This document shows, piece after piece, positions 654 through 59,668 of a stretch of 64,000 bases of DNA; the first letter of the stretch is position 1; every line of letters starts with the position of its first letter. The position numbers and the translations under genes are program-made. This DNA is from Minisyncoccota bacterium (lineage in GTDB: Bacteria > Patescibacteriota > Minisyncoccia > Phycocordibacterales > DATDWN01), in assembly GCA_036517395.1 (NCBI GenBank), contig DATDWN010000016.1, positions 11,262-75,261 on the forward strand, in the 5' to 3' direction. The notes beneath the pieces were generated by a model. The model saw only the letters and a list, made by a program, of their open reading frames with translations. It was not told the origin of the DNA and searched no databases.

Positions 654-2486
654 TTAAAGAAGTAGAACAAAAAATCGCCAAAAGGGTGTTTTTTTGTTAT
701 ATTGGTGATGTATTGGGGGATTAGTTAAGTGGTATAACAGCGCTCTCCAAAAGCACTGTCGGGAGTTCGATTCTTCCATCCCCCGCATTGTAGCGAATGA
801 AGTCTCAAAAGCTTCTTTTTGCCTTGTAGTATAGCCACGCTTTTTAGGTTCGAGCGAAGCAAAGAGGACTTTCTGAGACCGAAGTTCATTTTCAATGAGC
901 AAATACGGATGTATGCGTTCTATATTGAGCTTTTTATCTTTTAGAGTTAGGTTCGAGCCGATGGTAGAAAATATATTACGCTTCTTTTGAATGTCATCTG
1001 TAACAAAGTGTTTTAACGCAAATCTACAGAAATTAAATGTACGCTCTGTTGTCTCTATGGATTGGTCAAATTTTGTTTTTACTTCATTAAGTTCAGTTTC
1101 AATCGCTCCTCTCTCTTTTAACAACCCTCTTTTCTGTTCAAGATATTCGTCTGGTGTATATAACTCATGATTGATATTTTGAGGTGAAGTATATTCTCGA
1201 TGAAGATTTGCGATACGAGTTTGCACATTATCATAAGTGGCTTGCAGTGAGTCACGAATTCTTTTCTCTCCACTTGTAGAGTCATTTTGTTTTTCAGAAA
1301 GATAATCAAGAGCAACTCTTAGATATTCTTCGTCAATCGTTAGACCAGAAAGAACTTCGTTGAATTGTGTATCGAGGTCTTCAAGTTTTATGGACCTCTG
1401 AGTACAGGTTTTACATGGTCTCTTCGTGCAGTGAAAATAAGTGTAGTGAAGAATGGTGGGATTAATCATCTCTGATATATCTGTTTTACATTTTGCACAA
1501 GCAGTTCTGCCTTCATACGCAAATTTGTATTTACATTTTGTACAAATAATCTGATGTTTTTCTTCTGCTGTGATAGTTCCATTACATTCTCCGCACTTAA
1601 TAAGTCCTGTCGCATAGAAATTTCTAGTTTTTGGTTGAGGCTTACCTTGCCTTCCAAGAAGGACCTGTGCTCGCCAGAATTCTTTTTCCGTAATCATTGG
1701 CTGATGATTACCTTTGTATAATTCTTTTTCTCCGGTCTCATCATTCTTCCATTCAAAAGACCCATAGTAAAAAGGTTCTTTGAACATTTCATAAATCTGT
1801 GTACGACTTAATGGCTTACCACCAAGGCGTTTTCTTATTGTTGTTCTTAGCCCCCATTTGGTATTTGCTGTATCAAGGATTTTGGTCACTGAATATGTGC
1901 CTGTGAGAAACAGGTCCCACATTTTTCGGACAATTTCAAAATTTTTCTCATCGGGTACAATAATTTTTTCTCCTTTGTCGCCTTGATTTTTATAACCTAT
2001 TGGAGCAAGGCTTGGTCGCCAACCCTTTGCGACTCTTGAATTCAAGCCTCGCTTAACATTCTTAGAAAGTCTGACCACATAGTCGGTAGCACGACCACCT
2101 TCAATACTCATAAGAAGACCAGCATCTTCTGGATAGAATGAGCGACTTGGAGTTTTAATTACTTTTATGACAGATTTTTGGAGCATCCATTGTAACCGCC
2201 CATTATCAATCGGATTTCGAGATAAGCGGTCAATATCCCAACACAAAAGACCGTCTGCCTCGCCATTTTGAATACGATCTAGCATTTCATTAAAGACTTT
2301 TCGCCCAGGATCCTTTGCACTCTTTTCTTCAGTGAAAGGTGCTTTTGCTAGAAACAATTCTTCACGGTCTGCAATCTGTTTAAGAGCGTCTGTTTGGTCG
2401 CCAATAGATGCAACTTGCCGTTGAGAGTCTTCAGAACTTTTACGACAGTATACGAAGTATTTTATTTTAGTATTATCTTGGGTCAT
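654..2486 (-). CDS. large serine recombinase (resolvase catalytic domain + recombinase domain + zinc ribbon)
   Basis: N-terminus 'YFVYCRKSSEDSQRQVASIGDQ' is the serine-recombinase catalytic motif; downstream 'CGECNGTI...CTKCKYKF' is a Cys4 zinc ribbon; 610 aa. The ORF reads through tRNA-Trp on the opposite strand. Confidence 0.8.
   Translation of the reverse strand: MTQDNTKIKYFVYCRKSSEDSQRQVASIGDQTDALKQIADREELFLAKAPFTEEKSAKDPGRKVFNEMLDRIQNGEADGLLCWDIDRLSRNPIDNGRLQWMLQKSVIKVIKTPSRSFYPEDAGLLMSIEGGRATDYVVRLSKNVKRGLNSRVAKGWRPSLAPIGYKNQGDKGEKIIVPDEKNFEIVRKMWDLFLTGTYSVTKILDTANTKWGLRTTIRKRLGGKPLSRTQIYEMFKEPFYYGSFEWKNDETGEKELYKGNHQPMITEKEFWRAQVLLGRQGKPQPKTRNFYATGLIKCGECNGTITAEEKHQIICTKCKYKFAYEGRTACAKCKTDISEMINPTILHYTYFHCTKRPCKTCTQRSIKLEDLDTQFNEVLSGLTIDEEYLRVALDYLSEKQNDSTSGEKRIRDSLQATYDNVQTRIANLHREYTSPQNINHELYTPDEYLEQKRGLLKERGAIETELNEVKTKFDQSIETTERTFNFCRFALKHFVTDDIQKKRNIFSTIGSNLTLKDKKLNIERIHPYLLIENELRSQKVLFASLEPKKRGYTTRQKEAFETSFATMRGMEESNSRQCFWRALLYHLTNPPIHHQYNKKTPFWRFFVLLL
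715..785 (+). tRNA. tRNA-Trp (anticodon CCA)
   Basis: Hand-folded cloverleaf: acceptor GGGGGAT/ATCCCCC, D-stem GTTA/TAAC, anticodon loop CTCCAAA (CCA at 747-749), T-arm GGGAG-TTCGATT-CTTCC. One C-A mismatch in the anticodon stem; 3' CCA is not encoded. Confidence 0.75.
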
Positions 2487-4345: not shown

Positions 4346-4791
4346 ATTAATATCAAGTGACAAGAAGACAGTAGCTTTTTAGCTAAACTGAATTTGTCCC
4401 TAGTGAGGTGCCGGTAGCTAGTGCGATGGCGACTGGTATAGTCTTGGAGCCTGTGCTGATGCTGGTGGCTATGAGGGGTGTTTTCTAAACTGAAAATGAA
4501 TTAACCAAAGTATATATCTGTCAAAAAATAAGTCAATCCTATTATCCACCACCTTGAATAAAAGTAATTACTCTGACATGATTAAATTACAACTTAATAA
4601 AAAGTTGACCTAACCCCCATAGTTTTCTGTGGGATATGGTCAAAAACCGGTAAGAGACAAAGAACCCATCATATAGGGCTACTCTTACCGGTCCCTGCGG
4701 GAAACTGCAGGTGGAGGACCTCGGTCCTCACCTATGTGGTGGGCTTTTTGTGTCCAAAATACGAATTATTTTTATTATTAAATAAATTATT

Positions 4792-11595: not shown

Positions 11596-11698
11596 TGAGC
11601 TGGATAGGACTCGAACCTATATCATGACCTTAGAATGGTCAGCCCTGGGGAGGGTATAGTTTTCAAGACTACTGTTCTATCCATTGAACTACCAGCCC
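11596..11698 (-). tRNA. atypical tRNA, anticodon UGA (Ser-like) with extra hairpin; ~103 nt
   Basis: Reverse complement folds: acceptor GGGCTGG/CCAGCTC, D-arm GTTC-AATGGATA-GAAC, anticodon arm GTAGT-CTTGAAA-ACTAT, variable hairpin CCCT-CCCC-AGGG, an additional TGACC-ATTCTAA-GGTCA hairpin, T-arm ATAGG-TTCGAGT-CCTAT. Confidence 0.55.
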
Positions 11699-12757
11699 AC
11701 ATCCTACTCCAAAATTTGGAGTAGAGAAAAACCAATTAAAGTTTTTTCTTTTTATCAGAAGTGCCTTTCTTCTTTGCGGGAGGGGGCATTTTCTGTTTTT
11801 CCTCGTCAACTTCAAAACAAAACGCTCTCAGACCTTTTTCCCATGCATAAAGTATTTTTCCGTTACGCAAAGTAATAAAAGGTCTACATATGAGTGTAGC
11901 CACTTTATTTTATCTATCTGTATCCTAATAATGCCTTTGCTCTTTAGGCGAGCCGTTACGGCTGACACAATTTTCCGTTGGTATAGTTTAGATTACTTAT
12001 TATATAGCTAATCTTATAAACCCAACTCGGCTTTTTGCTTTAGGAACGATTTAGTGGACAGCACTCTGGGAGTTACCCCTCAAGTTTACACCTGGGAAAG
12101 TTTCCTTCCCCAAAATGCTTTCCACCAAATCTTTCAAAAAACATCTTGTCGAGTGCTGTCCACCAATGACTTATTCATCGGTACCATAATTATACTACAT
12201 ACAGTTTTCATTGCAAATAAAATTTCAATATAAAGTTGTGGACAGCCCAAAAAATCAGAAAAATAAAAAATAGATTTTGACTAATCTGTTTTTATAGAAA
12301 AGCTTGGGTAGGGTATGTACCCCCCCACCCCAAAAACACCCTTTATTGCATGGGATGACCTATTGGCGGTATTTCCTCACCACCCCCTGCCAAAGTCGGG
12401 GGTAGATGCACCTCCACCCCCTGGACCATATACGAAGCTTGGAGCGTGTTATGTTAAGATTGGTACATAAAACATTGTGTTTTGGCTCTCATACCAAGTT
12501 CTAACAGCCTCAACAGTGTTCCGCATATACGACGAACCCCACGCGCTCAGCTTACGCGTGGGGACAGGCTGGTAGCTCTCAGGAGAACAGTGATACTACC
12601 AACCATCGAAGAAGGAACGGGAAACCGAAGACGATCACTATGGTCATGATGACCATGCCAAGCAGTAGGGCTTGGCCGTCATGCTCAGTGCAAGACTCGG
12701 GACTGGTCACAATTACCCTCCACTATTCTTTTTACTACAAAACCAATTTTTAATCAA

Positions 12758-17899: not shown

Positions 17900-20159
17900 G
17901 CCTTTTTTTCTCTTCCTGCAAAATTTCTAGTGCGCGGGGAAGTTCTATTGTGTACACATCATCTTCTTTCAGAGAGCGAAAATCTTTTTGATGTACTATG
18001 TATGGCCCGAAACGTCCAATGTTTGCCGTTATCTTTTCACCGGTATCAGGATGAACCCCCAAGACTTTCGGAAGCGACAAATATTTTAGTGCATCAGCCA
18101 ATGTCACCGTGCTCAAATCTTTCTCTCTCGGTATTGATGCCATTTTTGGCTTAATTGCTTTTTTCGAACCCTTGCCCTTCACCCTCTCTCCAACCTGAAC
18201 ATATGGCCCGTACTTTCCAATATTTACAAAAATCGGCAAACCAGATTCCGGATCAACTCCTACGGGTTCATCCTTTTTAATCTCCTCTCCCGCCATAGTC
18301 AAAGCACCTTCACAGTCAGGATAGTTAGAACAGGAAAGAAACTTGCCGTTTCGAGAAAGTTTTATAATCATATCTTTGCCACATTTTGGACATCGGAATT
18401 CGAGACCGGCGTCACCCAGGTTTGTGATCTTATCAATTTTTTCCTTGGCTTTTACATCGGCCAAAAATGGCTTATAAAAAGTAGCCAATGTTTTTACATA
18501 TTCTTCCTTACCCTCGGCTATGAGGTCGAGTTTATCTTCCATGTCAGCCGTGAAGCTGTCGCTTATGTACTCGGCAAAATTTGCTTCCAAAAAACTAGAT
18601 ACAACATCGCCCGTGTCAGTGGGTACCAGTGCCTTGCTCACTTTCTCCACGTAACCTCTATCCTCCAAAGTTTTTATGGTTGAAGCGTATGTACTAGGCC
18701 TTCCTATGCCTCTTTTCTCAAGTTCCTTAATCAATCCTGCTTCAGAGTATCTTCCTGGTGGTTCGGTCTGCTTTTCTTCTGTATTAATTTTTTTCAAATT
18801 AAGAGCCTCACCGATTTTGACTTTTGGCAATTCAACATCATCTCCTCGCGAAGCCGGATCTCCGAGGAGCCATCCAGCAAATTTAATTTGCGAACCAGTT
18901 ATAGAAAAATCCGGAATATGTGTGTCAAGGACAGTCCTTGACATTGACACATTTGCTGATATTTTGGTTCGAAGTGTCAGAGCATCTTTCATTTGCGATG
19001 ACACAGTTCGTCGCCATATGAGCTTATAAAGTTTTTTCTGTTCATCATTAAAACCGACATGCTCGGCTTCAAAATGTGTTGGGCGTATAGCCTCGTGCGC
19101 CTCCTGTGCGTTTTTGGATTTAGTTGCAAATTTTCGTATTTGTAAATATTCTTTACCAAACTTTTTCTCCACCACTGCCGCAATCTGTGCTATAGCAACA
19201 CCACTCAAGTTTGTCGAGTCCGTGCGCATGTATGTAATATGTCCACACTCATATAATTTCTGTGCAATACCCATTGTTCTTGATGGAGAAAATCCTAGCC
19301 GTGATGATGCTGTCTGTTGAAGTGTGGAGGTTATGAAAGGCGCACGAGGGGATTTTTTCACATCCGTCTCTTTTACATCTTTCACAAACCAGCTGTTTTC
19401 CTTTCCTCCCTTTTCTGCAATTTCCACAATCCGCTCCATTTCTTTTTTATCTGTTGGTTCTTCTTCGCAGACAACAGTAAAAATCTGTTTTCCCCTAGGC
19501 AACGCCTCGGGAGATTTATCTGAGGTATCCGAGGCGTTGCCTAGGGAAGAGATCTCTGCTGAAATAATCCAGAAAGCATGAGACTTAAAAGCCCGGATTT
19601 CTCTCTCGCACTCCATGATAATGCGCAGAGCGGGGGATTGGACGCGTCCGGCAGAGAGGCCATATCGTACTTTTTTCCATATCAAACCCGACAAGTCGTA
19701 TCCCACGAGCCTATCGAGGACTCGCCTTGCTTCCTGCGCTTGTCGCAAATTCTGATCGATATCCCGTGGATTTTTCAAAGCTTCCTCTATCGCTTCCTTA
19801 GTAATTTCCTGATATGAAACCCTCTTCACTTTTTTGTTATGTACTATATGTTCTGTGCCCTTATCATTAATAAGTTCTGCCAAGTGCCATGCTATCGCCT
19901 CACCCTCGCGGTCGGGGTCAGTTGCAAGCAGAACTTCACTGGACTTTTTGGCCAAAGCTTTTATACCATTGACCACTTTCTCCTTGCCTTTGGAAATTTC
20001 ATAGTGCGGCACGAAACCACCCTCGATGTCGATGGCCACTTTGTTCGACTTTGGCAAATCACGAACATGGCCGACAGAAGCAACCACTTCATATCCACTT
20101 CCAAGATATTTTGAAATAGTCTTGGCTTTGGCGGGGGACTCAACGATAAGTAACTTCAT
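17874..20159 (-). CDS. topA: DNA topoisomerase I
   Basis: Toprim 'LLIVESPAKAKTISKYLG', active-site region, C-terminal Zn ribbons 'CPKCGKDM', 'CSNYPDC'. Confidence 0.9.
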   Translation of the reverse strand: MKLLIVESPAKAKTISKYLGSGYEVVASVGHVRDLPKSNKVAIDIEGGFVPHYEISKGKEKVVNGIKALAKKSSEVLLATDPDREGEAIAWHLAELINDKGTEHIVHNKKVKRVSYQEITKEAIEEALKNPRDIDQNLRQAQEARRVLDRLVGYDLSGLIWKKVRYGLSAGRVQSPALRIIMECEREIRAFKSHAFWIISAEISSLGNASDTSDKSPEALPRGKQIFTVVCEEEPTDKKEMERIVEIAEKGGKENSWFVKDVKETDVKKSPRAPFITSTLQQTASSRLGFSPSRTMGIAQKLYECGHITYMRTDSTNLSGVAIAQIAAVVEKKFGKEYLQIRKFATKSKNAQEAHEAIRPTHFEAEHVGFNDEQKKLYKLIWRRTVSSQMKDALTLRTKISANVSMSRTVLDTHIPDFSITGSQIKFAGWLLGDPASRGDDVELPKVKIGEALNLKKINTEEKQTEPPGRYSEAGLIKELEKRGIGRPSTYASTIKTLEDRGYVEKVSKALVPTDTGDVVSSFLEANFAEYISDSFTADMEDKLDLIAEGKEEYVKTLATFYKPFLADVKAKEKIDKITNLGDAGLEFRCPKCGKDMIIKLSRNGKFLSCSNYPDCEGALTMAGEEIKKDEPVGVDPESGLPIFVNIGKYGPYVQVGERVKGKGSKKAIKPKMASIPREKDLSTVTLADALKYLSLPKVLGVHPDTGEKITANIGRFGPYIVHQKDFRSLKEDDVYTIELPRALEILQEEKKRRGFKKKSK

Positions 20160-20198: not shown

Positions 20199-20350
20199 TT
20201 TATCTGCGACGAGAGAGGAGCGCGTGAATGTGTAATCACATTCACAGCGTCCGAACGAGGAGTAGCAATGGTAAAAACCCCGCCCCTCTGGGGCGGAACA
20301 GGGGTCCAGGGCTTGCCCTGGGGTTTCATACCATTGATTAAAAACAATTG
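20199..20350. repeat. 140-bp structured repeat (family C), copy 1, between topA and dprA
   Basis: Near-identical to 42403-42540; hairpins GTGAATGTG-TAAT-CACATTCAC, GCCCC-TCTG-GGGGC, CCAGGGC-TT-GCCCTGG; carries the SD and mini-ORF. Confidence 0.8.
20267..20350 (+). CDS. 27-aa mini-ORF (MVKTPPLWGGTGVQGLPWGFIPLIKNN) inside the 140-bp repeat, perfect SD
   Basis: GAGGAG 5 nt upstream of the ATG. A second copy at 42471 differs by a synonymous CCC/CCA change. Confidence 0.4.
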
Positions 20351-22888: not shown

Positions 22889-23791
22889 ATGATTTCCTCA
22901 ACTTCGTCATCACTCTCTCACGAGGTATACCTGAGAAAAAAGAGAAACAAAAAACTTTTTCGGTATGGGTTAATTATTTTTATCATCGTAGCTCTCGTCG
23001 CTCTTGTTTCTTATGTTTCTCACAGACCACAGATTCGTATATCAAAGGTTGAACTTTCTGGAGGTGTTTTGGTTACAGAGACCGATGTCGATGCCAAATC
23101 CCGAGAGTATTTGTCCGGCTCGTATCTCTGGCTTTTCCCAAAGAACAACACTTTTTGGTATTCCGAGGGAGGCCTAGCGGACTATCTCAAGGAAAGTTTT
23201 AAAAGAATTGACACCATAAGTATTCACAGAAAAGATCTGAAAACTTTGGTGGTGGAAATAAAAGAACGCAAACCAGTAGCCATGTGGTGCGAAGGTAATC
23301 CAGGAGAAGTGCGACCAAGCTTGAATGCTGGGTCAGAAGTGCAACCGAGCGGGAGCGAGGGCGTACTGAGCTCAGCAGAGCGAACGTGCTATTTCCTAGA
23401 CCAGAATTCAACCATTTTTGCCAAAGCCCCAAACTTCTCGGGTGATGCCTATTTCAAATTTTATGGTTCGATTTCCGGAAACAATCCAATCGGCACGGAA
23501 TATATAGCAAGTAGCACAGAGTTCGCCGAGCTTTCTGATTTTATAATAAAGACAAAACAACTTTCACTTCGGCCTCAATATATGATTGCAAAAGATGGCG
23601 GGGAATTTAGTCTAGTTATTGCCGGTGGCGGACAGATTATGTTTGATATGCGCTTGCCCTTAGCAACTGTTGCTCAAAATCTTGAAGCGCTTTTGCGTAC
23701 ACAAGTATTGGCTACTAGCACAAGCGGAGTTCTCCCTGTCGAGTATATTGATCTGAGATATGGAAATAAGCTATTTTACAAAATAAAATAG
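22889..23791 (+). CDS. FtsQ/DivIB-like cell division protein (TM + POTRA)
   Basis: N-terminal TM, POTRA-like 'IRISKVELSGGVLVTETDV', beta domain. Confidence 0.55.
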   Translation: MISSTSSSLSHEVYLRKKRNKKLFRYGLIIFIIVALVALVSYVSHRPQIRISKVELSGGVLVTETDVDAKSREYLSGSYLWLFPKNNTFWYSEGGLADYLKESFKRIDTISIHRKDLKTLVVEIKERKPVAMWCEGNPGEVRPSLNAGSEVQPSGSEGVLSSAERTCYFLDQNSTIFAKAPNFSGDAYFKFYGSISGNNPIGTEYIASSTEFAELSDFIIKTKQLSLRPQYMIAKDGGEFSLVIAGGGQIMFDMRLPLATVAQNLEALLRTQVLATSTSGVLPVEYIDLRYGNKLFYKIK

Positions 23792-23900: not shown

Positions 23901-24962
23901 ATGAACTTCTGGCATCAACTCAAACGCCCTATCATGGTTCTCGCGCCCATGGCTGACGTAACGGATGCGGCTTTTCGTCGCATCATTGCAAAATATGGTA
24001 AGCCGGACGTCATGTGGACAGAATTTGTTTCGGCTGACGGTCTGTTTATGGGAGGATATGAACATCTAATAAAAGATCTGGCTTTCACAGAAGCCGAGAG
24101 ACCTATCGTGGCCCAATTTTTCACAAGTAAACCGGAGATGATGGAGAAAGCGGCGGAGCTGGCGTGTGATCTAGGTTTTGATGGGATAGATATAAACATG
24201 GGATGTCCCGACAAATCAGTGGAAAAGCAGGGAAGTGGTTCAGCTCATATAAAAGATTATAAAAATGCTCAAAAAATTATTCGCGCGGCCATGAGAGGTG
24301 CGGAGAAAGCATTCCAAAGGTCCGACCTTAAAAACCCAAACTCCCAAGGTCGGACCTTGGGTCCCATACCCGTTAGTGTCAAAACGCGTATTGGTTACAA
24401 TAAAAATGAACTTGATACATGGCTACCGGCACTTCTTGAGACCAATCCCGCGGTGATAACAATCCATGCACGAACCAGAAAAGAAATGTCCTCTGTTCCT
24501 GCTCGTTGGGAGCATGTGAAGGAAGCTGTGGAGATAAGAAATAAATTTTTTGATTCTAGTGGCAAGAAAAGTCAGACGCTGATTTTTGGCAATGGAGATG
24601 TCGTAGGCACTGATGACGCTAGGAGAAAGTGTGAAGAAACCGGATGTGACGGTGTCATGCTCGGTCGCGCGATTTTCGGAAACCCGTGGCTTTTTAACAA
24701 ACCACTCCAGATGTCAAGGACAGTCCTTGACACGAAAGATAAGGAGGTCTCGATTCCAGAAAGGTTGAGAATAATGGTTGAGCACACGAAACTTTTTGAA
24801 GAAATATTGCCATACAAAAGTTTTGCAATAATGAAAAAACACTACAAAGCCTACGTGACGGGTTGGCCTGATGCAAAAGAACTAAGATTGAAACTGATGG
24901 AAGCCAAAGATGCTGGGGAAGTGGAGGCTGTTGTGGGAGAGTATCTAGCTAGTCTGACTTGA
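23901..24962 (+). CDS. dus: tRNA-dihydrouridine synthase
   Basis: 'MVLAPMADVTDAAFRRI', 'GFDGIDINMGCP', TIM-barrel Dus motifs; contains two palindromic in-frame segments. Confidence 0.85.
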   Translation: MNFWHQLKRPIMVLAPMADVTDAAFRRIIAKYGKPDVMWTEFVSADGLFMGGYEHLIKDLAFTEAERPIVAQFFTSKPEMMEKAAELACDLGFDGIDINMGCPDKSVEKQGSGSAHIKDYKNAQKIIRAAMRGAEKAFQRSDLKNPNSQGRTLGPIPVSVKTRIGYNKNELDTWLPALLETNPAVITIHARTRKEMSSVPARWEHVKEAVEIRNKFFDSSGKKSQTLIFGNGDVVGTDDARRKCEETGCDGVMLGRAIFGNPWLFNKPLQMSRTVLDTKDKEVSIPERLRIMVEHTKLFEEILPYKSFAIMKKHYKAYVTGWPDAKELRLKLMEAKDAGEVEAVVGEYLASLT

Positions 24963-25299
24963 CTTATTTTTCATATAAGCAGATTCTATAAGTAGAAATC
25001 ACAGGTATGGGGTAGCGGGATACTGCGGGATGTTTCCCGGCGACCCATAACTGGGTCTTAATGGCTCTCGCGTTTCTTACTGTGATTTTTAGGGCTTGAC
25101 GTGCTGGGGCGTCTTGGGGGCGTCGGTATGTGCATGAAGTGCACGCCGATTTACATAGCTCCGAGACGCAGCTGGTGTCTCCCCGCATTCTCTGAAAGGA
25201 GATTGCAATCGCTAGATCAGACTTTATACCTCGGGGTCGGGACGAGACCCCGAGGTATCCAACGCCGACTCGCATACGAGCGGTGTTTTTTGTTATACT

Positions 25300-25440
25300 A
25301 TATCCGCACACTAACTTTGCTCTCGTTGCATTCAGTCTCAAAATATAGATGTATATCTTAGATTTAGATATAATTTCTAACTTTTGCTTGATTGTTAATG
25401 TGGCAACAGGGAGACAAGAGCAAAGTTAGTGTGCGGATAA
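25300..25440. repeat. family A MITE-like element, copy 1 (TIR TATCCGCACACTAACTTTGCTCT), abuts dnaX ATG
   Basis: Terminal inverted repeats; right end GTGTGCGGATAAATATG includes the dnaX start codon. Confidence 0.8.
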
Positions 25441-41982: not shown

Positions 41983-42030
41983 AATAAAATCATTCCGACA
42001 TTCTCAAGAATGTCGGAATGATTTACTAAA

Positions 42031-42438
42031 ATGGATATGGATATAGACGAGGAAGAATTAAAAAATAAACTTACGCCAGAGGAGTATGCGGTTTTGAGAG
42101 AAAAGGGAACAGAAACTCCATTTAGCGGAAAGCTTTTACACGATGATAGAAATGGAATGTATAAATGCAAAGTCTGCGGCGCTTCACTTTTTTCATCCGA
42201 TGCCAAGTTTGATTCTGGTACCGGTTGGCCAAGTTTTGATCAGGCCATTCCCGGAAGTGTCAAAGAAGTGAAGGATGACACCCTCGGAATGAGTCGTATA
42301 GAAGTGGTTTGCGCAAAATGTAACTCTCATCTCGGTCACTTATTTGATGACGGTCCAACTAAAACTGGAAAAAGATATTGCTTGAACTCCGTCTGCCTTG
42401 ATTTATCTGCGACGAGAGAGGAGCGCGTGAATGTGTAA
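42031..42438 (+). CDS. msrB: peptide methionine sulfoxide reductase B
   Basis: 'CKVCGASLF', 'CAKCNSHLGHLFDDGP', 'RYCLNS'. The last ~10 codons extend into the 140-bp repeat. Confidence 0.9.
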   Translation: MDMDIDEEELKNKLTPEEYAVLREKGTETPFSGKLLHDDRNGMYKCKVCGASLFSSDAKFDSGTGWPSFDQAIPGSVKEVKDDTLGMSRIEVVCAKCNSHLGHLFDDGPTKTGKRYCLNSVCLDLSATREERVNV

Positions 42439-42590
42439 TCACATTCACAGCGTCCGAACGAGGAGTAACAATGGTAAAAACCCCGCCCCTCTGGGGCGGA
42501 ACAGGGGTCCAGGGCTTGCCATGGGGTTTCATACCATTGATCCGCACACTAATTCTGCCATGGTCCTGTTTTGAAATAATCCTAAAATAA
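42403..42590. repeat. 140-bp structured repeat (family C), copy 2, after msrB; mini-ORF 42471-42590
   Basis: Two substitutions versus copy 1; the one inside the mini-ORF is synonymous (CCC to CCA). Confidence 0.8.
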
Positions 42591-51622: not shown

Positions 51623-52909
51623 GTGAAATCTTTTTCTTTTGATATACATTCTGAACTTCCAAATTCTCTCGGACGAGTTGGTACAATACACACTCCACAT
51701 GGTGACATACAAACACCGGCATTTGTCGCAGTTGGAACAAAAGGCACGGTAAAAAGTTTGACGCCGGAACAGGTCGCAGATACTGGCACACAAGTCATAA
51801 TCGCAAATACATATCATTTATATTTAGAGCCCGGAGACGAAAAGATAAAAAATATTGGAGGGTTGCACAAAGCGATGAACTGGTCTGATCCTCTTATGAC
51901 CGACTCTGGCGGCTTCCAAGTTTTTTCTCTAGGTGTCGCATATGGCAAAAAGATTAGCAAAGTTTCAAAAAAAGATGAACTAATACTATCCAAGCCTCTC
52001 CCTATGTCCGACATAGGGAGATTTGCGGAAACAAGACTTCAACAAGATGAGGCAGTACCAAAGATTGCTCGAATTGATTCCAATGGGGTAATGTTCCGCG
52101 ATCATATATCGGGCAGCGCTCACTATTTTACTCCGGAAAAATCGATAGAGATTCAGCACAATCTCGGCGCAGATATTATTTTTGCCTTTGACGAATGCAC
52201 CTCACCTCATGAGTCGCTTCATTATCAGAAAGAAGCGCTTGAGAGAACTCACCGCTGGGCTCGACGTTCTCTTGAACATCATTCCGACATTCTCAAGAAT
52301 GTCGGAATGAATGGCCCTGCGATTTTTGGCATTGTGCAGGGCGGGCGAGATGAAACCTTGCGTAAAGAAAGTGCAAAATATATGGCAGATTTAAGGGCCG
52401 GAGGTCCTGAACGAAGCGAAGGATTCGACGGTTTCGGAATAGGCGGATCATTTGAAAAAGAAGATATGAGCAAGGCAGTAGAATGGTGCAATCAGATTTT
52501 GCCAAGAGAGAAGCCAAGGCATCTGCTTGGTATCGGCGAGCCAACCGATTTATTTATGGCGGTTGAGTTCGGGTGTGATTTGTTTGACTGTGTTTCACCC
52601 ACTCGTATCGCTCGAAACGGCGGAGTTTATACAAAAGAAGGAAGAGTCAATTTACTGAATCAAGAATTTCGAGAAGATTCAAAACCTCTCGACCAAGGTT
52701 GTCTCTGCTACACATGCAAAAACTTTTCGTGCGCTTATGTTGCACATCTCTTTCATGCAAAAGAAATTTTGGCTTATACGCTGGCATCAATACACAACCT
52801 TTATTTTATAACTCACATGGTGGATGGTATGCGCGAGACTATGCAAAGCGGGGATTTTGAAAGCTACAAAAAAGATTTTTTAAGTAAATACTACAGGACT
52901 AATTTGTGA
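51623..52909 (+). CDS. tgt: queuine tRNA-ribosyltransferase
   Basis: 'LMTDSGGFQVFSL', 'DCVSPTRIARNGG', Zn site 'CLCYTCKNF...H'; carries a 30-bp palindromic segment at 52290-52319. Confidence 0.9.
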   Translation: MKSFSFDIHSELPNSLGRVGTIHTPHGDIQTPAFVAVGTKGTVKSLTPEQVADTGTQVIIANTYHLYLEPGDEKIKNIGGLHKAMNWSDPLMTDSGGFQVFSLGVAYGKKISKVSKKDELILSKPLPMSDIGRFAETRLQQDEAVPKIARIDSNGVMFRDHISGSAHYFTPEKSIEIQHNLGADIIFAFDECTSPHESLHYQKEALERTHRWARRSLEHHSDILKNVGMNGPAIFGIVQGGRDETLRKESAKYMADLRAGGPERSEGFDGFGIGGSFEKEDMSKAVEWCNQILPREKPRHLLGIGEPTDLFMAVEFGCDLFDCVSPTRIARNGGVYTKEGRVNLLNQEFREDSKPLDQGCLCYTCKNFSCAYVAHLFHAKEILAYTLASIHNLYFITHMVDGMRETMQSGDFESYKKDFLSKYYRTNL

Positions 52910-52921
52910 TATATTAGGCGA

Positions 52922-55021
52922 ATGCAGTTTAAAATACACAGGGAGTTCGAGCCCGCGGGGGATCAGCCCAAAGCTATTGAAGCATTAGTTGATGGAGTAA
53001 AAAAAGGTCTGAAACATCAGACACTTTTTGGTGTGACTGGATCCGGTAAAACTTTCACGGTAGCAAACGTCATACAAGAAATCCAAAAACCAACTCTGGT
53101 CATCGCCCACAACAAAACTCTAGCCGCTCAGCTGGCTCAGGAATATCGCGAATTTTTCCCGAACAACGCCGTGCATTATTTTGTTTCTTATTACGACTAC
53201 TACCAACCCGAGGCCTACATGCCCGTCTCTGACACATATATAGAGAAGGAAGCAATGATAAATGAGGAGATTGAGAGACTTCGTCACGCTTCGACGCAGG
53301 CTCTTCTCACACGAAAGGATGTTATCATCGTCGCCTCAGTTTCTTGCATCTATGGCCTCGGTTCTCCCGTCGAATATGAAAAAGTAAATATGAAAATAGC
53401 CGTGGGACAGGAAATTTCTCGGGCGGAATTTATCAGAAGTTTAGTTGATGTCCATTTTGAGAGGACTAGCGCAGATCTTTCGTCGGGACAATTTCGAGCC
53501 ATAGGGAACATGTTAGAAATTATGCCGATTTCAGAAAAAAATATTTACCGTATTGAAATCGAGGCCGGCAACCACAGTACCAGAGCAAAGCTCGGTACGG
53601 GGCATAGAATAAAACAAATATTGGAAATTGACTCGATTACTCGAAGTATAGTAAGAGAAGTCAGCGCATTTTTTCTTTTTCCCGCCAAACATTTCATTTC
53701 CACGAAAGAGCAAAACGAAAGAGCCTTCAAATCTATCAAAGCGGAACTGACCGAGCGACTAAAAGAATTAGAAAAAGAAGGCAAGTTGCTCGAAGCGGAA
53801 AGGCTGAAGAGACGCACGACTTATGACTTGGCTCTTATCCGCGAGATGGGATATTGCAACGGCATAGAAAACTACTCTCGGCATTTTTCTGGGAAGATGG
53901 CGGGAGAAGCGCCTGACACTTTGCTTTCATATTTTCCCCACAAGGCCGACGGTTCGGCAGATTTTTTGACGATTATCGATGAGTCTCACGTTACGGTTCC
54001 GCAAATAGGTGCTATGTATGGAGGGGATTCATCTCGAAAACAGTCGCTTGTTGATTTCGGATTTCGATTACCAAGCGCAAAAGACAACAGGCCTTTGAAA
54101 TTTAAAGAGTTTGAAGAGAGGATGGGACAGTGTATATATACGAGCGCCACCCCGAATGATTATGAAAGAGAACACTCACAGCAGACCGTGGAGCAGGTTA
54201 TACGACCGACGGGTCTTATTGATCCAGTTGTTGAGGTTCGACCAATAGTATCCTCCCCGAGGTCTGACCTTGGGAAATTAGATGTTAAAGGTCAGACCTC
54301 TGGAATTCCGTATCCGGGTCAAATAAAAGATTTCATACAAGAATCCGAGAAAGCCATAAAAAAAGGTGGGAGGGTTATAGCCACAACTCTAACTAAAAAG
54401 ATGGCAGAAGATTTAAGCGAATATTTGAAAGAGGGGAATATTAAAGCGGAATATTTGCACAGTGATATAAAAACAATACAGCGCATTGAGATACTGACAG
54501 CTTTTCGTCGCGGTGAATTTGATATTTTAGTCGGAGTGAATTTGCTTCGAGAAGGTTTGGATTTGCCGGAGGTGACGCTTATTGGTATTTTGGAAGCGGA
54601 TAAAGAAGGATTTCTACGAAGCGAAACTTCTCTTATACAAATTATAGGTCGTGCGGCGCGAAATGTAGATGGAAAAGTCATTTTGTACGCCGATCACATG
54701 ACCGGTTCGATGGAGTATGCCATAAACGAGACAAACCGCAGACGCGCTCTGCAAGTGGACTACAACACAAAACACGGTATCACTCCGAAAACTATAATAA
54801 AAAAGATTCAGGACATAACCGACCAGATGAAGACAGAACATGCGAAAACTGTGAGCGATTTACTCGAAATTGATAAAAAACTATTTGAAAAAGATCCACA
54901 GAAATTGATAAAGCAAAAAGAAAAACAAATGGAGGGAGCTGTGAAAATCTTGGACTTTGAGACGGCCGCTATCTTGCGTGACGAGGTTTTGGAATTACAG
55001 AGGTTACTTGGAAAAAAATGA
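52922..55021 (+). CDS. uvrB: excinuclease ABC subunit B
   Basis: 'GDQPKAI', 'GVTGSGKTFT', helicase motifs, C-terminal UvrB/C interaction 'AAILRDEVLELQ'. Confidence 0.95.
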   Translation: MQFKIHREFEPAGDQPKAIEALVDGVKKGLKHQTLFGVTGSGKTFTVANVIQEIQKPTLVIAHNKTLAAQLAQEYREFFPNNAVHYFVSYYDYYQPEAYMPVSDTYIEKEAMINEEIERLRHASTQALLTRKDVIIVASVSCIYGLGSPVEYEKVNMKIAVGQEISRAEFIRSLVDVHFERTSADLSSGQFRAIGNMLEIMPISEKNIYRIEIEAGNHSTRAKLGTGHRIKQILEIDSITRSIVREVSAFFLFPAKHFISTKEQNERAFKSIKAELTERLKELEKEGKLLEAERLKRRTTYDLALIREMGYCNGIENYSRHFSGKMAGEAPDTLLSYFPHKADGSADFLTIIDESHVTVPQIGAMYGGDSSRKQSLVDFGFRLPSAKDNRPLKFKEFEERMGQCIYTSATPNDYEREHSQQTVEQVIRPTGLIDPVVEVRPIVSSPRSDLGKLDVKGQTSGIPYPGQIKDFIQESEKAIKKGGRVIATTLTKKMAEDLSEYLKEGNIKAEYLHSDIKTIQRIEILTAFRRGEFDILVGVNLLREGLDLPEVTLIGILEADKEGFLRSETSLIQIIGRAARNVDGKVILYADHMTGSMEYAINETNRRRALQVDYNTKHGITPKTIIKKIQDITDQMKTEHAKTVSDLLEIDKKLFEKDPQKLIKQKEKQMEGAVKILDFETAAILRDEVLELQRLLGKK

Positions 55022-58270: not shown

Positions 58271-59668
58271 ATGAATAATCGAAATATTAAAAAAGTAATA
58301 TCTAAATTCCCGGATTCTCCTGGGGTGTATATTTTCCTTGGCTCGCCGAAACGTAGTGGAGGCGGCAAGTCCAAAAGTGAAATTCTTTACATAGGCAAAG
58401 CCACATCCCTCCGTGACCGAGTTAGAACTTACATGTCAAGGACAGTCCTTGACACTCGAAGTCCACTCATAGCTAAGATGCTGGAGGAGTTTGAAGATAT
58501 CGAATACATAAAAACAGATTCTGTTTTGGAAGCACTTGTTTTGGAAGCCAATCTCATAAAAAAACACCAGCCGGAAGCAAATATAAAAGAAAAAGATAAT
58601 AAAAGTTTTAACTTTGTTGTGATTACCAAAGAAGATTTTCCTCGTGTTTTAGTTATCCGCGGTCGTGAACTGCTGCAATCGCGCATTATGTCAAGGACGC
58701 CCCTTGCCAAAAATTCAAAAATGGCAAAGGGCGTCTTTGACATTAAAAATCAGTTCGGTCCATTTCCAAACGGCGGACAGCTGAAGGAAGCACTGAAAAT
58801 AATTCGCAAGATGTTTCCGTATCGGGATAAGTGTAATTCTGCGGAAGTCCGACTTCCGCAGAAAACGTATTCAGGGAAGCGACCGAGCGGGAACGATGGG
58901 AGTACTGAGGCCAACAGGCCGAATGTAGCCTGTTTTAATCGTCAGATAGGTTTGTGTCCAGGAGTTTGTACAGGAGAAATTACAAAAGAGGATTATCAGA
59001 AACAAATCCAAAATATTATTTTGTTTTTTCGGGGTAATAAAAAGCGATTGCTGAAAAACCTTGAGAAACAAATGCGAGGTTTCGCAAAAAATCGAGAGTT
59101 TGAGAAAGCCGGCGAAGCTAAAAAAACAATTTTTCTTCTAAAACATATTCAGGATATATCGCTTATAAAAGAAGATTGCAAAGGTTCGACCTTAAAGAAT
59201 GGTGCCCAAGGTCGAACCTTGGATTCAGAGACATTCCGAATCGAATCTTATGATGTCGCACACATGTCTGGACAAAATGTTGTTGGGGTTATGATTGTTG
59301 TCGAGGATGGTGAAGTGAAGAAGTCTGATTATAGGAAGTTCAAAATAAAAAACAATCCAAGTGTAAACGATACTAAAGCCTTGACAGAAGTACTGTCGAG
59401 AAGGTTGGCACATATAGAATGGCGATTTCCTGATTTGATTGTTGTCGATGGAGGGACGGCGCAAAAGAGAGTGATGGAAAAGATTTTGCGGGAGAATAAA
59501 GTGAATATTCCCGTTGTTTCTGTTGTCAAAGATGAGAGACATAAACCGAAGAATATACTAGGTGACAGACAGTGGTTAAAATATGAGAGAGAAATAATTC
59601 TAGCAAACAGCGAATCACATAGATTTGCTATTGGATATCATAGAAAGCTCAGAGGGAAGTTTGGATAA
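58271..59668 (+). CDS. uvrC: excinuclease ABC subunit C (short form, lacks C-terminal HhH)
   Basis: GIY-YIG 'GVYIF...ILYIGKATSLRDRV', UvrBC-binding 'LLKNLEKQMRGFAKNREFEKAGEAKK', RNaseH-like endonuclease domain. ATG at 58271 preferred over the track start. Confidence 0.85.
   Translation: MNNRNIKKVISKFPDSPGVYIFLGSPKRSGGGKSKSEILYIGKATSLRDRVRTYMSRTVLDTRSPLIAKMLEEFEDIEYIKTDSVLEALVLEANLIKKHQPEANIKEKDNKSFNFVVITKEDFPRVLVIRGRELLQSRIMSRTPLAKNSKMAKGVFDIKNQFGPFPNGGQLKEALKIIRKMFPYRDKCNSAEVRLPQKTYSGKRPSGNDGSTEANRPNVACFNRQIGLCPGVCTGEITKEDYQKQIQNIILFFRGNKKRLLKNLEKQMRGFAKNREFEKAGEAKKTIFLLKHIQDISLIKEDCKGSTLKNGAQGRTLDSETFRIESYDVAHMSGQNVVGVMIVVEDGEVKKSDYRKFKIKNNPSVNDTKALTEVLSRRLAHIEWRFPDLIVVDGGTAQKRVMEKILRENKVNIPVVSVVKDERHKPKNILGDRQWLKYEREIILANSESHRFAIGYHRKLRGKFG

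Follow-up and report, generated by a model that had tools for sequence, protein, structure and literature searches.

Has a hairpin-forming DNA repeat been inserted, in frame, into the tRNA-dihydrouridine synthase gene (dus) of a Minisyncoccota bacterium? The question is raised by the stretch of contig DATDWN010000016.1 analysed here in its full length of 64 kb (the window). The initial annotation had described a palindrome within dus at 24317-24358, with a 16-nt spacer between its arms, along with a sister copy in uvrC at 59181-59220, with a 14-nt spacer, and had likened the pair to the palindromic elements of Rickettsia. Both pairs of arms were found exactly at these positions. The dus copy consists of the arms AAGGTCCGACCTT and AAGGTCGGACCTT around the spacer AAAAACCCAAACTCCC and is translated as RSDLKNPNSQGRTL; two further base pairs extend its stem outward past one mismatch. 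The arms of the uvrC copy are AAGGTTCGACCTT and AAGGTCGAACCTT, and the segment reads GSTLKNGAQGRTL. Codon reading bore out the further claim that the right arms of these two copies share one frame, CAA GGT CGN ACC TTG, encoding QGRTL, while the left arms are read in different frames. A third copy, GAGGTCTGACCTT-16 nt-AAGGTCAGACCTC with the translation SPRSDLGKLDVKGQTSG, emerged from a general inverted-repeat scan and lies in uvrB. The element common to the three genes is referred to here as family 1 (Table 1).

Several measures set these sites apart from the rest of the window. The arm pattern, with at most one mismatch allowed, is matched five times where 0.35 matches are expected, and none of 100 shuffled sequences attains five; the exact arms number six in the window, and every one of them is paired. 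As DNA, the window copies fold into hairpins with z-scores of -5.0 to -6.4 relative to shuffled controls (dus, -13.9 kcal/mol and z -5.2; uvrB, z -6.4), and as RNA with z-scores of -3.7 to -5.6 at -19 to -25 kcal/mol. The window was also scanned, with filters off, using a covariance model trained on 116 copies, which owes nothing to the window since the training copies all came from other genomes. The model scored the dus copy at 50.9 bits (E 1.7e-14), the uvrC copy at 50.7 bits and the uvrB copy at 46.7 bits, the next best site in the window reaching 13 bits. The three window sites are members of one family. Nothing was found at them in an Rfam scan at gathering thresholds, and the relaxed Rfam matches to the element were microRNA-like hairpins at chance level (12-21 bits, against thresholds of 32-90).

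Segments gained by Dus, UvrB and UvrC

Alignment of Dus and UvrC with their orthologs, which the initial annotation had named as a check, identifies both segments as insertions, of 15 aa in Dus and of about 11 aa in UvrC, and structural mapping, likewise named there, puts the encoded peptides in loops or linkers. Among 120 close orthologs of Dus, the majority read RGAxK-(D/N)GKN-LPVSVKTR, while the window protein reads RGAEK-AFQRSDLKNPNSQGRTLGPI-PVSVKTR, so that the 20 residues present in the window amount to a net gain of 15 aa (+45 nt). Against the solved Thermotoga structure 1vhn, the segment falls in a gap ahead of the strand SVKTR. An AlphaFold model of Dus (mean predicted local-distance difference test score, pLDDT, 82.7) places it between a helix at residues 120-140 and a strand at 158-163, with a mean pLDDT of 55 over residues 141-150; in this model the insert is predicted to sit in a low-confidence loop.

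The uvrB copy corresponds to a clean 22-residue gap in the alignment with Bacillus UvrB (2fdc_A), directly after the conserved RPTGLxDPxxxVRP, a position that we take to be the junction of two helicase domains. About 85% of 121 close UvrB orthologs read PIV-EK-GxYK-GQI at this place and the window protein is longer by 16 residues; these 48 nt are the exact length of the covariance-model match. The uvrC copy is found in the variable linker between HIQDISLIKED and FRIESYD, just ahead of the RNase H-like endonuclease domain, and the ortholog alignment shows this linker to be about 11 residues (about 33 nt) longer than usual. Judged from these alignments, the uvrB and uvrC inserts lie in apparent inter-domain linkers. 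In the UvrA of another genome, a family-1 copy fills an 11-aa gap relative to a solved UvrA structure.

Most orthologs of dus, uvrB and uvrC are without the element. The best matches of the three window proteins come from metagenome-assembled genomes of Candidatus Zambryskibacteria, Paceibacterota and Parcubacteria, and proteins identical to those of the window are annotated in public records as "Candidatus Paceibacterota bacterium". The UvrC proteins of this clade are only about 410-465 aa long and end directly after the RNase H-like endonuclease domain; therefore the C-terminal helix-hairpin-helix domain of classical UvrC appears, from the sequences, to be missing in this clade.

Table 1. 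Palindromic elements of the window, their host genes and an encoded peptide (positions are those of the window)
Feature	Position	Strand	Details
dus, copy 1 of family 1	24314-24361		Arms 24317-24329 and 24346-24358; loop 24330-24345
uvrB, copy 2 of family 1	54256-54303		Arms 54259-54271 and 54288-54300; loop 54272-54287
uvrC, copy 3 of family 1	59178-59223		Arms 59181-59193 and 59208-59220; loop 59194-59207
dus, host of copy 1	23901-24962	+	tRNA-dihydrouridine synthase; 353-aa open reading frame; Pfam Dus PF01207; matches PDB 1vhn and other Dus structures
dus 60-nt segment	24309-24368	+	Residues 137-156, AFQRSDLKNPNSQGRTLGPI; stands where most orthologs have the 5-residue turn DGKNL
uvrB, host of copy 2	52922-55021	+	Open reading frame; UvrB structure matches at E ~1e-228; Pfam UvrB domains
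uvrC, host of copy 3	58271-59668	+	Open reading frame; 465-aa product in public records; P0121 100% identical; GIY-YIG and UvrC RNase H-like domains
Peptide stretch spanning an insert (example)			...AFQRSDLKNPNSQGRTLGPIPVSVK
Family-2 copy	18923-18943		In topA, a minus-strand gene
Family-2 copy	24712-24732		In dus
Family-2 copy	58434-58454		In uvrC

A repeat family of Patescibacteria

The wider search for the arm pair that the initial annotation had also called for was carried out on one genome per species (185,579 species, 596 Gb) with the pattern AGGTYNRACCTT-N10-20-AAGGTYNRACCT. In these species-representative genomes at least 119 loci with at least 135 copies were found, our own calculation putting the chance expectation at about 6 matches. 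The copy statistics below refer to the 135 copies at these loci among the matches listed in the scan. About 107 of the 119 listed loci (about 90%) bear names of Patescibacteria lineages, the rest carrying unclassified or doubtful labels; the lineages include Zambryski-, Kaiser-, Lloyd-, Taylor-, Nomura-, Adler-, Lipton-, Yanofsky-, Vogel- and Moranbacteria, as well as Paceibacterota, Minisyncoccia and bins labelled "Saccharibacteria". Host GC content ranges from about 33% to 58%, as read from the values contained in some genome names. One Lloydbacteria genome has at least 13 copies, with an outer stem of its own (AATACA-...-TGTATT), and the genome H43-bin105_1 has at least six. Family 1 is a repeat family dispersed through Patescibacteria, chiefly Parcubacteria. 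Carriage by phages was considered and rejected, as only 2 loci match among 2.9 million viral contigs.

The copies share a distinctive anatomy. Each arm is 13 nt long with the consensus RAGGT-YNR-ACCTY, the two arms forming an inverted repeat in an element of about 40-54 nt overall whose ends read (C)AAGGT...ACCTT(G). The outer 5 + 5 bp of each arm (AAGGT/ACCTT) are invariant across lineages of very different GC content, while the central triplet varies (TCG, CCG, CGG, CAG, CGA, TAA and others) and is complementary between the arms in 120 of the 135 copies (89%), where chance would give 1 in 16. The pair flanking the arms, which was left free in the search pattern, is complementary in 98% of copies (A:T in 119, G:C in 14), the next pair outward is C:G in about half, and complementarity then fades to background within about 10 nt. 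Spacers measure 10-16 nt, most often 11 (42 copies), 14 (28) or 10 (24), and follow a loose consensus of GGGAATTCAAA, GGATCNGAAGA or AAGAAT..., in both orientations. Single arms were found as well, as compact hairpins of the form xxxxAGGT-YNR-ACCTxxxx. The element has a GC content of 50-54% against about 40% for the genome, and is present in genomes of about 55% GC also.

A copy was counted as coding when it lay in a long open reading frame (ORF), taken as one that spans 150 aa or more and leaves 30 aa or more on either side of the copy. By this measure 78 of the 135 copies (58%) are within long ORFs and about 40% are not. All three frames are used, giving RSDL/RFDL/RLNL in 39 copies, (Q/K)GxT(L/F) in 28 and (K/E)VxP in 11. 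The loop runs in the same orientation as the host ORF in 34 copies, in the opposite orientation in 21 and ambiguously in 23, and the 34 to 21 split is not decisive for a bias relative to transcription. The 75 host ORFs match 135 Pfam families, among them class I aminoacyl-tRNA synthetases, GatA/GatB, NAD-dependent DNA ligase (LigA), SMC/RecN, the IF-2 and EF GTPases, RNase H, PheT, Mur ligase, Toprim proteins, UvrA and UvrB. The five copies outside long ORFs that had the longest flanking ORFs were found in intergenic positions, at the ends of genes or immediately before start codons, one of them standing in frame near a UvrC C-terminus. No frame-breaking or stop-containing intragenic copy was found among those examined, as expected if the segments are translated and disruptive insertions have been purged. 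In two different Parcubacteria genomes, the copies at loci L108 (3696-3732) and L078 (2591-2628) are placed alike ahead of leuS, their ends 8-9 nt upstream of its start codon.

Comparison of copies with one another points to dispersal between unrelated sites. Forty-three pairs of elements differ by at most 3 nt, loop included, where a rough estimate of chance gives fewer than one such pair, and for 32 of the 43 no homology could be detected between the two host ORFs. Two of these 32 are exact 37-mers, L064/L070 in one genome and L098/L111 across two genomes, and genome-specific subfamilies are present. At the dus site, the filled orthologs (P0005, P0011 and P0046) and the window gene are scattered on a neighbor-joining tree, their nearest neighbors being empty.

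Orthologous copies reveal how the element diverges in place. The 60-nt dus insert shows 92% identity in a comparison of the window with P0005, against 72% for the remainder of the gene (50% at third codon positions), and no other 60-nt stretch of dus attains 92%. The central triplets of the dus arms are TCC/CGG in the window and P0005 and TCT/CAG in P0011 and P0046, a compensated change that swaps R for Q in the right arm; the peptide is therefore not the conserved thing. An orthologous uvrC copy in Parcubacteria GW2011_GWA2_40_14 (L050), whose protein is 66% identical to that of the window, occupies the same site with the same right flank and has CTG/CAG in place of TCG/CGA, a difference of two compensated pairs. 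Arm pairing is thus maintained through time in orthologous copies.

Origin and maintenance of the element

Family 1 is probably a short, non-autonomous mobile repeat that depends on its hairpin and is kept within genes only where it stands in frame in a permissive loop. In such a process, copies would be made at the level of DNA, by transposition rather than by recombination, and would land between or within genes in either orientation; the form recognized would be a hairpin, probably on single-stranded DNA. Copies found inside genes would be the survivors of selection, those that keep the frame, lack stop codons and are sited in a surface loop or inter-domain linker that is permissive, and they would be transcribed and translated as an extra loop of 11-20 residues, read as RSDL..., (Q/K)GxT(L/F)... 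or (K/E)VxP... depending on the frame. The complementarity of the arms may be kept in one of two ways: the hairpin may be recognized by a putative mobilizing enzyme, or the arms may correct each other within it.

A number of results weigh against mobility. Target-site duplications are lacking in 118 of 134 listed copies and amount to just 2 nt in the other 16, the flanks tending toward complementarity rather than direct repeats. No parent insertion sequence with the same ends was found among the window genes or among single arms in 790 kb of loci, nor does the gene content of the 64-kb window include a transposase of the hairpin-using type; its recombination-type genes are limited to a large serine recombinase beside a tRNA, the remainder being ordinary housekeeping genes. 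Filled and empty sites were not found to coexist within a population across samples of one strain: six contigs encoding the exact Dus protein are 99.9-100% identical to the window in nucleotide sequence over their whole length, with identical dus, and the members of the 90% identity clusters differ only by start calls and single residues. An all-against-all BLAST comparison of about 1.5 Mb of fetched loci, searched for indels coinciding with palindromes, yielded only two unrelated 15-nt indels. The events in dus and uvrB are not clean insertions, as about 60 nt stand in place of 12-15 nt and short turns of 4-5 residues (DGKNL in dus, EKGN in uvrB) have been replaced. The Dus tree is weakly resolved, and therefore a single old insertion followed by many losses is possible. 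Lastly, the invariance of the outer 5 + 5 bp across extremes of GC content could equally signal a function for the host.

Such a function is the substance of an alternative that we consider unlikely, in which the dyad stem AAGGT-nnn-ACCTT would be a cis-acting signal, either a binding site for a putative conserved Parcubacterial protein or a functional RNA hairpin, selected even within coding sequence. An invariant outer 5 + 5 bp around a variable central 3 bp is what operators of dimeric proteins look like, and the compensated changes in orthologous copies, the high identity of the dus insert in a gene that has otherwise diverged and the shared position ahead of leuS are all in keeping with it. 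Against it, the copies face both ways and are read in three frames, they turn up in more than 100 unrelated protein families as well as intergenically, and their placement follows no regular pattern with respect to promoters or the ends of genes; most dus, uvrB and uvrC orthologs do without the element, its density is low (3 copies per 64 kb) and it matches no Rfam family. A quite unlikely alternative dispenses with mobility altogether, the palindromes being born in place at hot spots of mutation, through template switching or fold-back synthesis, with arms that are homogenized and resemble one another through mutational bias. The window is indeed rich in palindromes, containing 38 perfect ones whose stems measure 9 bp or more, where shuffled sequences contain 4-7, and these are of several unrelated sequence types; the same loops of Dus, UvrB and UvrC hold different inserts in different lineages, target-site duplications are lacking, and compact single-arm hairpins occur alongside the double-arm forms. 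Local genesis fails to explain the same 13-nt arms and similar loops at hundreds of unrelated sites and genomes, or exact identity over 37 nt in unrelated genes, and the empty dus site offers no arm to serve as a template.

The remaining alternatives concern the transcript and its product. Intrinsic terminators, GC-rich stems with a U-tract after them at the end of a gene, or attenuators are suggested by some intergenic copies elsewhere that are bordered by A- or T-runs, such as aaaatacaAGG...CCTtgtatttt, but a run of either kind adjoins the stem in only 18% of non-coding and 13% of coding copies, and the window copies stand mid-gene, without a U-tract, in essential genes, which makes this role very unlikely. 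That the selected unit is the peptide, RSDL...G(R/Q)TL being a protein module with a function of its own, is extremely unlikely: peptide types such as RSDLKNS... and QGxTL do recur, yet the same DNA gives three unrelated peptides according to frame and is found in both orientations, about 40% of copies are outside long ORFs, the compensated dus change turns R into Q, and the Dus segment is modelled at low confidence. It is scarcely credible that the segments never reach the protein, being removed by RNA processing or skipped by translational bypass of the mitochondrial "byp" type. The mRNA hairpins are strong (-19 to -25 kcal/mol), and the inserts are short and in coding genes, like the byp elements, which Lang et al. 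in 2014 reportedly described as short inserts in mitochondrial coding genes. Skipping would free both frame and stop codons from constraint; the intragenic copies examined are all in frame and stop-free, net gains are multiples of three (+45 and +48 nt), and the copies examined that were first flagged as non-coding lie between genes or at gene ends, splitting none.

Two further ideas were discarded. DNA uptake sequences, such as the DUS of Neisseria and the uptake signal sequence (USS) of Pasteurellaceae, are a single short motif occurring about once per kb, mostly unpaired and using existing coding capacity. This possibility, prompted by the uvr host genes, was ruled out by the low density of family 1, by its arms, which are always paired, and by its sites, which are insertions. 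A resemblance of the GGTTCGA center to the tRNA T-arm was likewise ruled out because most copies have other centers.

Related palindromes, known systems and significance

The window holds further palindromes in coding sequence. A second family is a perfect 21-bp palindrome, TGTCAAGGAC-A-GTCCTTGACA, present in topA, dus and uvrC (Table 1) and always read MSRTVLDT; its peptide in the Dus model (residues 269-280) has a pLDDT below 50. The pattern occurs in metagenome contigs at at least 117 loci in at least 136 copies, 47 of them in long ORFs among the matches listed, and the coding copies listed read xSRTVLDx or CQGxSLT. One compensated swap of T:A to A:T separates the family-1 arm, CAAGGTC-N-GACCTTG, from the core of the second family, CAAGGAC-N-GTCCTTG, which hints that the two may belong to one superfamily. 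At 58690-58741 in uvrC there is a nested palindrome, GTCAAGGACGCCCCTTGCC-AAAAATTCAAAAA-TGGCAAAGGGCGTCTTTGAC, read SRTPLAKNSKMAKGVFD, with the ends of family 2 and a loop like that of family 1; it falls in low-occupancy columns of the UvrC ortholog alignment, and similar peptides are found at the other UvrC and UvrB hot spots in other lineages. It is a tentative possibility, to which we lend little credence, that a putative Parcubacterial hairpin-binding enzyme (a single-strand transposase, nuclease or recombinase) recognizes AAGGT/ACCTT and that families 1 and 2 and the nested uvrC forms make up one phylum-wide, loop-writing superfamily accounting for much of the length variation among proteins of the candidate phyla radiation (CPR).

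A third palindrome type of 32-36 nt, TCATTCCGACATTCT-ca-AGAATGTCGGAATGA, is in frame in tgt, the queuine tRNA-ribosyltransferase gene (52279-52310, read HHSDILKNVGMN), with a second copy in the intergenic region after msrA (41987-42024). Three more in-frame perfect palindromes are each single in the window: one in topA with an 18-bp stem and an 18-nt loop (19493-19546), TTCTGCGGAAGTC-c-GACTTCCGCAGAA in uvrC (58837-58863) and TCTCCCTATGTC-c-GACATAGGGAGA in tgt (51997-52021). Within an ORF with no Pfam match (22889-23791), a direct repeat at 23306-23350, GAAGTGCGACCAAGC ... GAAGTGCAACCGAGC, is read EVRPS...EVQPS; from its similarity to the frame-1 reading of the family-1 arms (EVRP/KVxP) it could be a decayed copy, and the covariance model gives no detection there.

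Other features of the window concern RNAs and possible mobile DNA. A GC-rich structured repeat of 140 nt is present twice, at 20199-20338 and 42402-42541, with 2 mismatches; G/C-rich stems and the hairpin GTGAATGTG-taat-CACATTCAC occur in it, Rfam gives no match that reaches a gathering threshold, and the repeat may represent a non-coding RNA not yet described. A LOOT RNA (Rfam RF03000) is matched at 4607-4729 with 71.8 bits against a gathering score of 46.4. At 11596-11698 on the minus strand, Rfam calls a tRNA over 103 nt for which there is no ARAGORN call and which a 10-bp palindrome adjoins (11704-11724); it may be an intron-containing or otherwise unusual tRNA. About 430 nt free of genes (24963-25391) separate dus from dnaX; they contain a GC-rich 13-bp hairpin (25226-25258) and match no Rfam family, even at E 0.1. 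The large serine recombinase gene (654-2486, minus strand), with Resolvase and Recombinase domains, overlaps or abuts tRNA-Trp (715-786); after it, in a stretch reaching to about 11 kb, come a gene for an AAA_25 protein and numerous small ORFs of zinc-ribbon or unknown type, and the region looks like an integrated mobile element or prophage.

How does family 1 compare with known systems? Rickettsia palindromic elements (RPEs; RPE-1 to RPE-10 of Ogata et al. 2000 and 2002) are about 150 bp long (about 100-150), fall into ten families and number 44 insertions in R. conorii, nearly half of which keep the frame of the unrelated genes that contain them and suit the fold of the protein (PMC10969869); the title of Ogata et al. 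2002, cited in that work, calls such palindromes unique to Rickettsia. Family 1 resembles them in being a DNA repeat able to form hairpins, with intergenic copies as well as copies in frame within many unrelated housekeeping genes of a reduced genome, its peptide being placed where the fold tolerates it. Neither has a target-site duplication or a known transposase, and several families share a genome, as other in-frame palindromes share the window. The differences are that family 1 is about 40-54 nt long and adds 11-20 aa, compared with about 100-150 bp and a peptide of about 30-50 aa for RPEs; that it inhabits Patescibacteria, in many class-level lineages of 33-58% GC, and not a single alphaproteobacterial genus; and that its arms are themselves dyad-symmetric, with an invariant AAGGT/ACCTT and a covarying 3-bp center. 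The description in the initial annotation as an element in the Rickettsia style thus stands as an analogy but not in size (about 40-54 nt against about 150 bp) or phylum. Because it falls short in size and belongs to another phylum, family 1 is best regarded as an analogue of RPEs and not as a member, and no homology is claimed.

Other short palindromic repeats offer partial parallels. The mobile GC clusters of yeast mitochondrial DNA are palindromic, hairpin-forming sequences of 30-60 bp that are mostly intergenic, with optional in-frame clusters in var1. Like family 1 they are short palindromic repeats that can sit in frame and add residues; unlike it they are organellar, conspicuous by their GC content in a very AT-rich genome and of other sequences. 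An extragenic location is part of the definition of repetitive extragenic palindromic sequences (REPs), which are tagged at one end by GTAG or CGTC and are associated with RAYT transposases. REPs and the bacterial interspersed mosaic elements (BIMEs) are, like family 1, imperfect palindromes of similarly short size, multicopy and with genome-specific subfamilies, and a hairpin on single-stranded DNA is a plausible route of mobilization for both. In contrast, the majority of family-1 copies and all three in the window are intragenic, with ends that read (C)AAGGT, and no RAYT, IS200-type or Y1-transposase gene was found among the genes of the 64-kb window. Because it is intragenic and lacks a GTAG or CGTC tag, family 1 is not a REP. 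Bacterial MITEs (miniature transposable elements with inverted repeats; ERIC, Correia, Nezha and others) usually measure 100-400 bp and have target-site duplications and the ends of a parent insertion sequence (PMC10969869). Family 1 shares with them a non-autonomous nature, inverted-repeat ends, multiple copies and occasional in-frame fusion with host ORFs, but it is too short and lacks a target-site duplication, which sets it apart from a classical MITE, and no parent insertion sequence was found in the window gene content or among single arms in 790 kb of loci. In the library searched, no paper was found on in-frame palindromic elements in Parcubacteria, Patescibacteria or the candidate phyla radiation, the matches to "palindromic" concerning CRISPR or unrelated subjects.

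Protein-coding palindromes have been treated as a peculiarity of Rickettsia, and a far smaller analogue is spread across Patescibacteria, chiefly Parcubacteria, with core genes as its hosts: uvrA, uvrB, uvrC, topA, ligA, aminoacyl-tRNA synthetases, gatA/B and infB. Patescibacteria, Parcubacteria included, are among the largest and least understood of bacterial radiations. If the proposed mobility is correct, selfish hairpin repeats in essential genes would be a recurrent outcome of genome reduction and not a one-off, and they would be a concrete source of the lineage-specific insertions that hamper alignment, annotation and structure prediction of CPR proteins. The sharply defined arm would then provide a handle for finding the mobilizing or binding protein, which to our knowledge has never been identified for RPEs, and copies could be used as presence/absence markers of strains in groundwater metagenomes.

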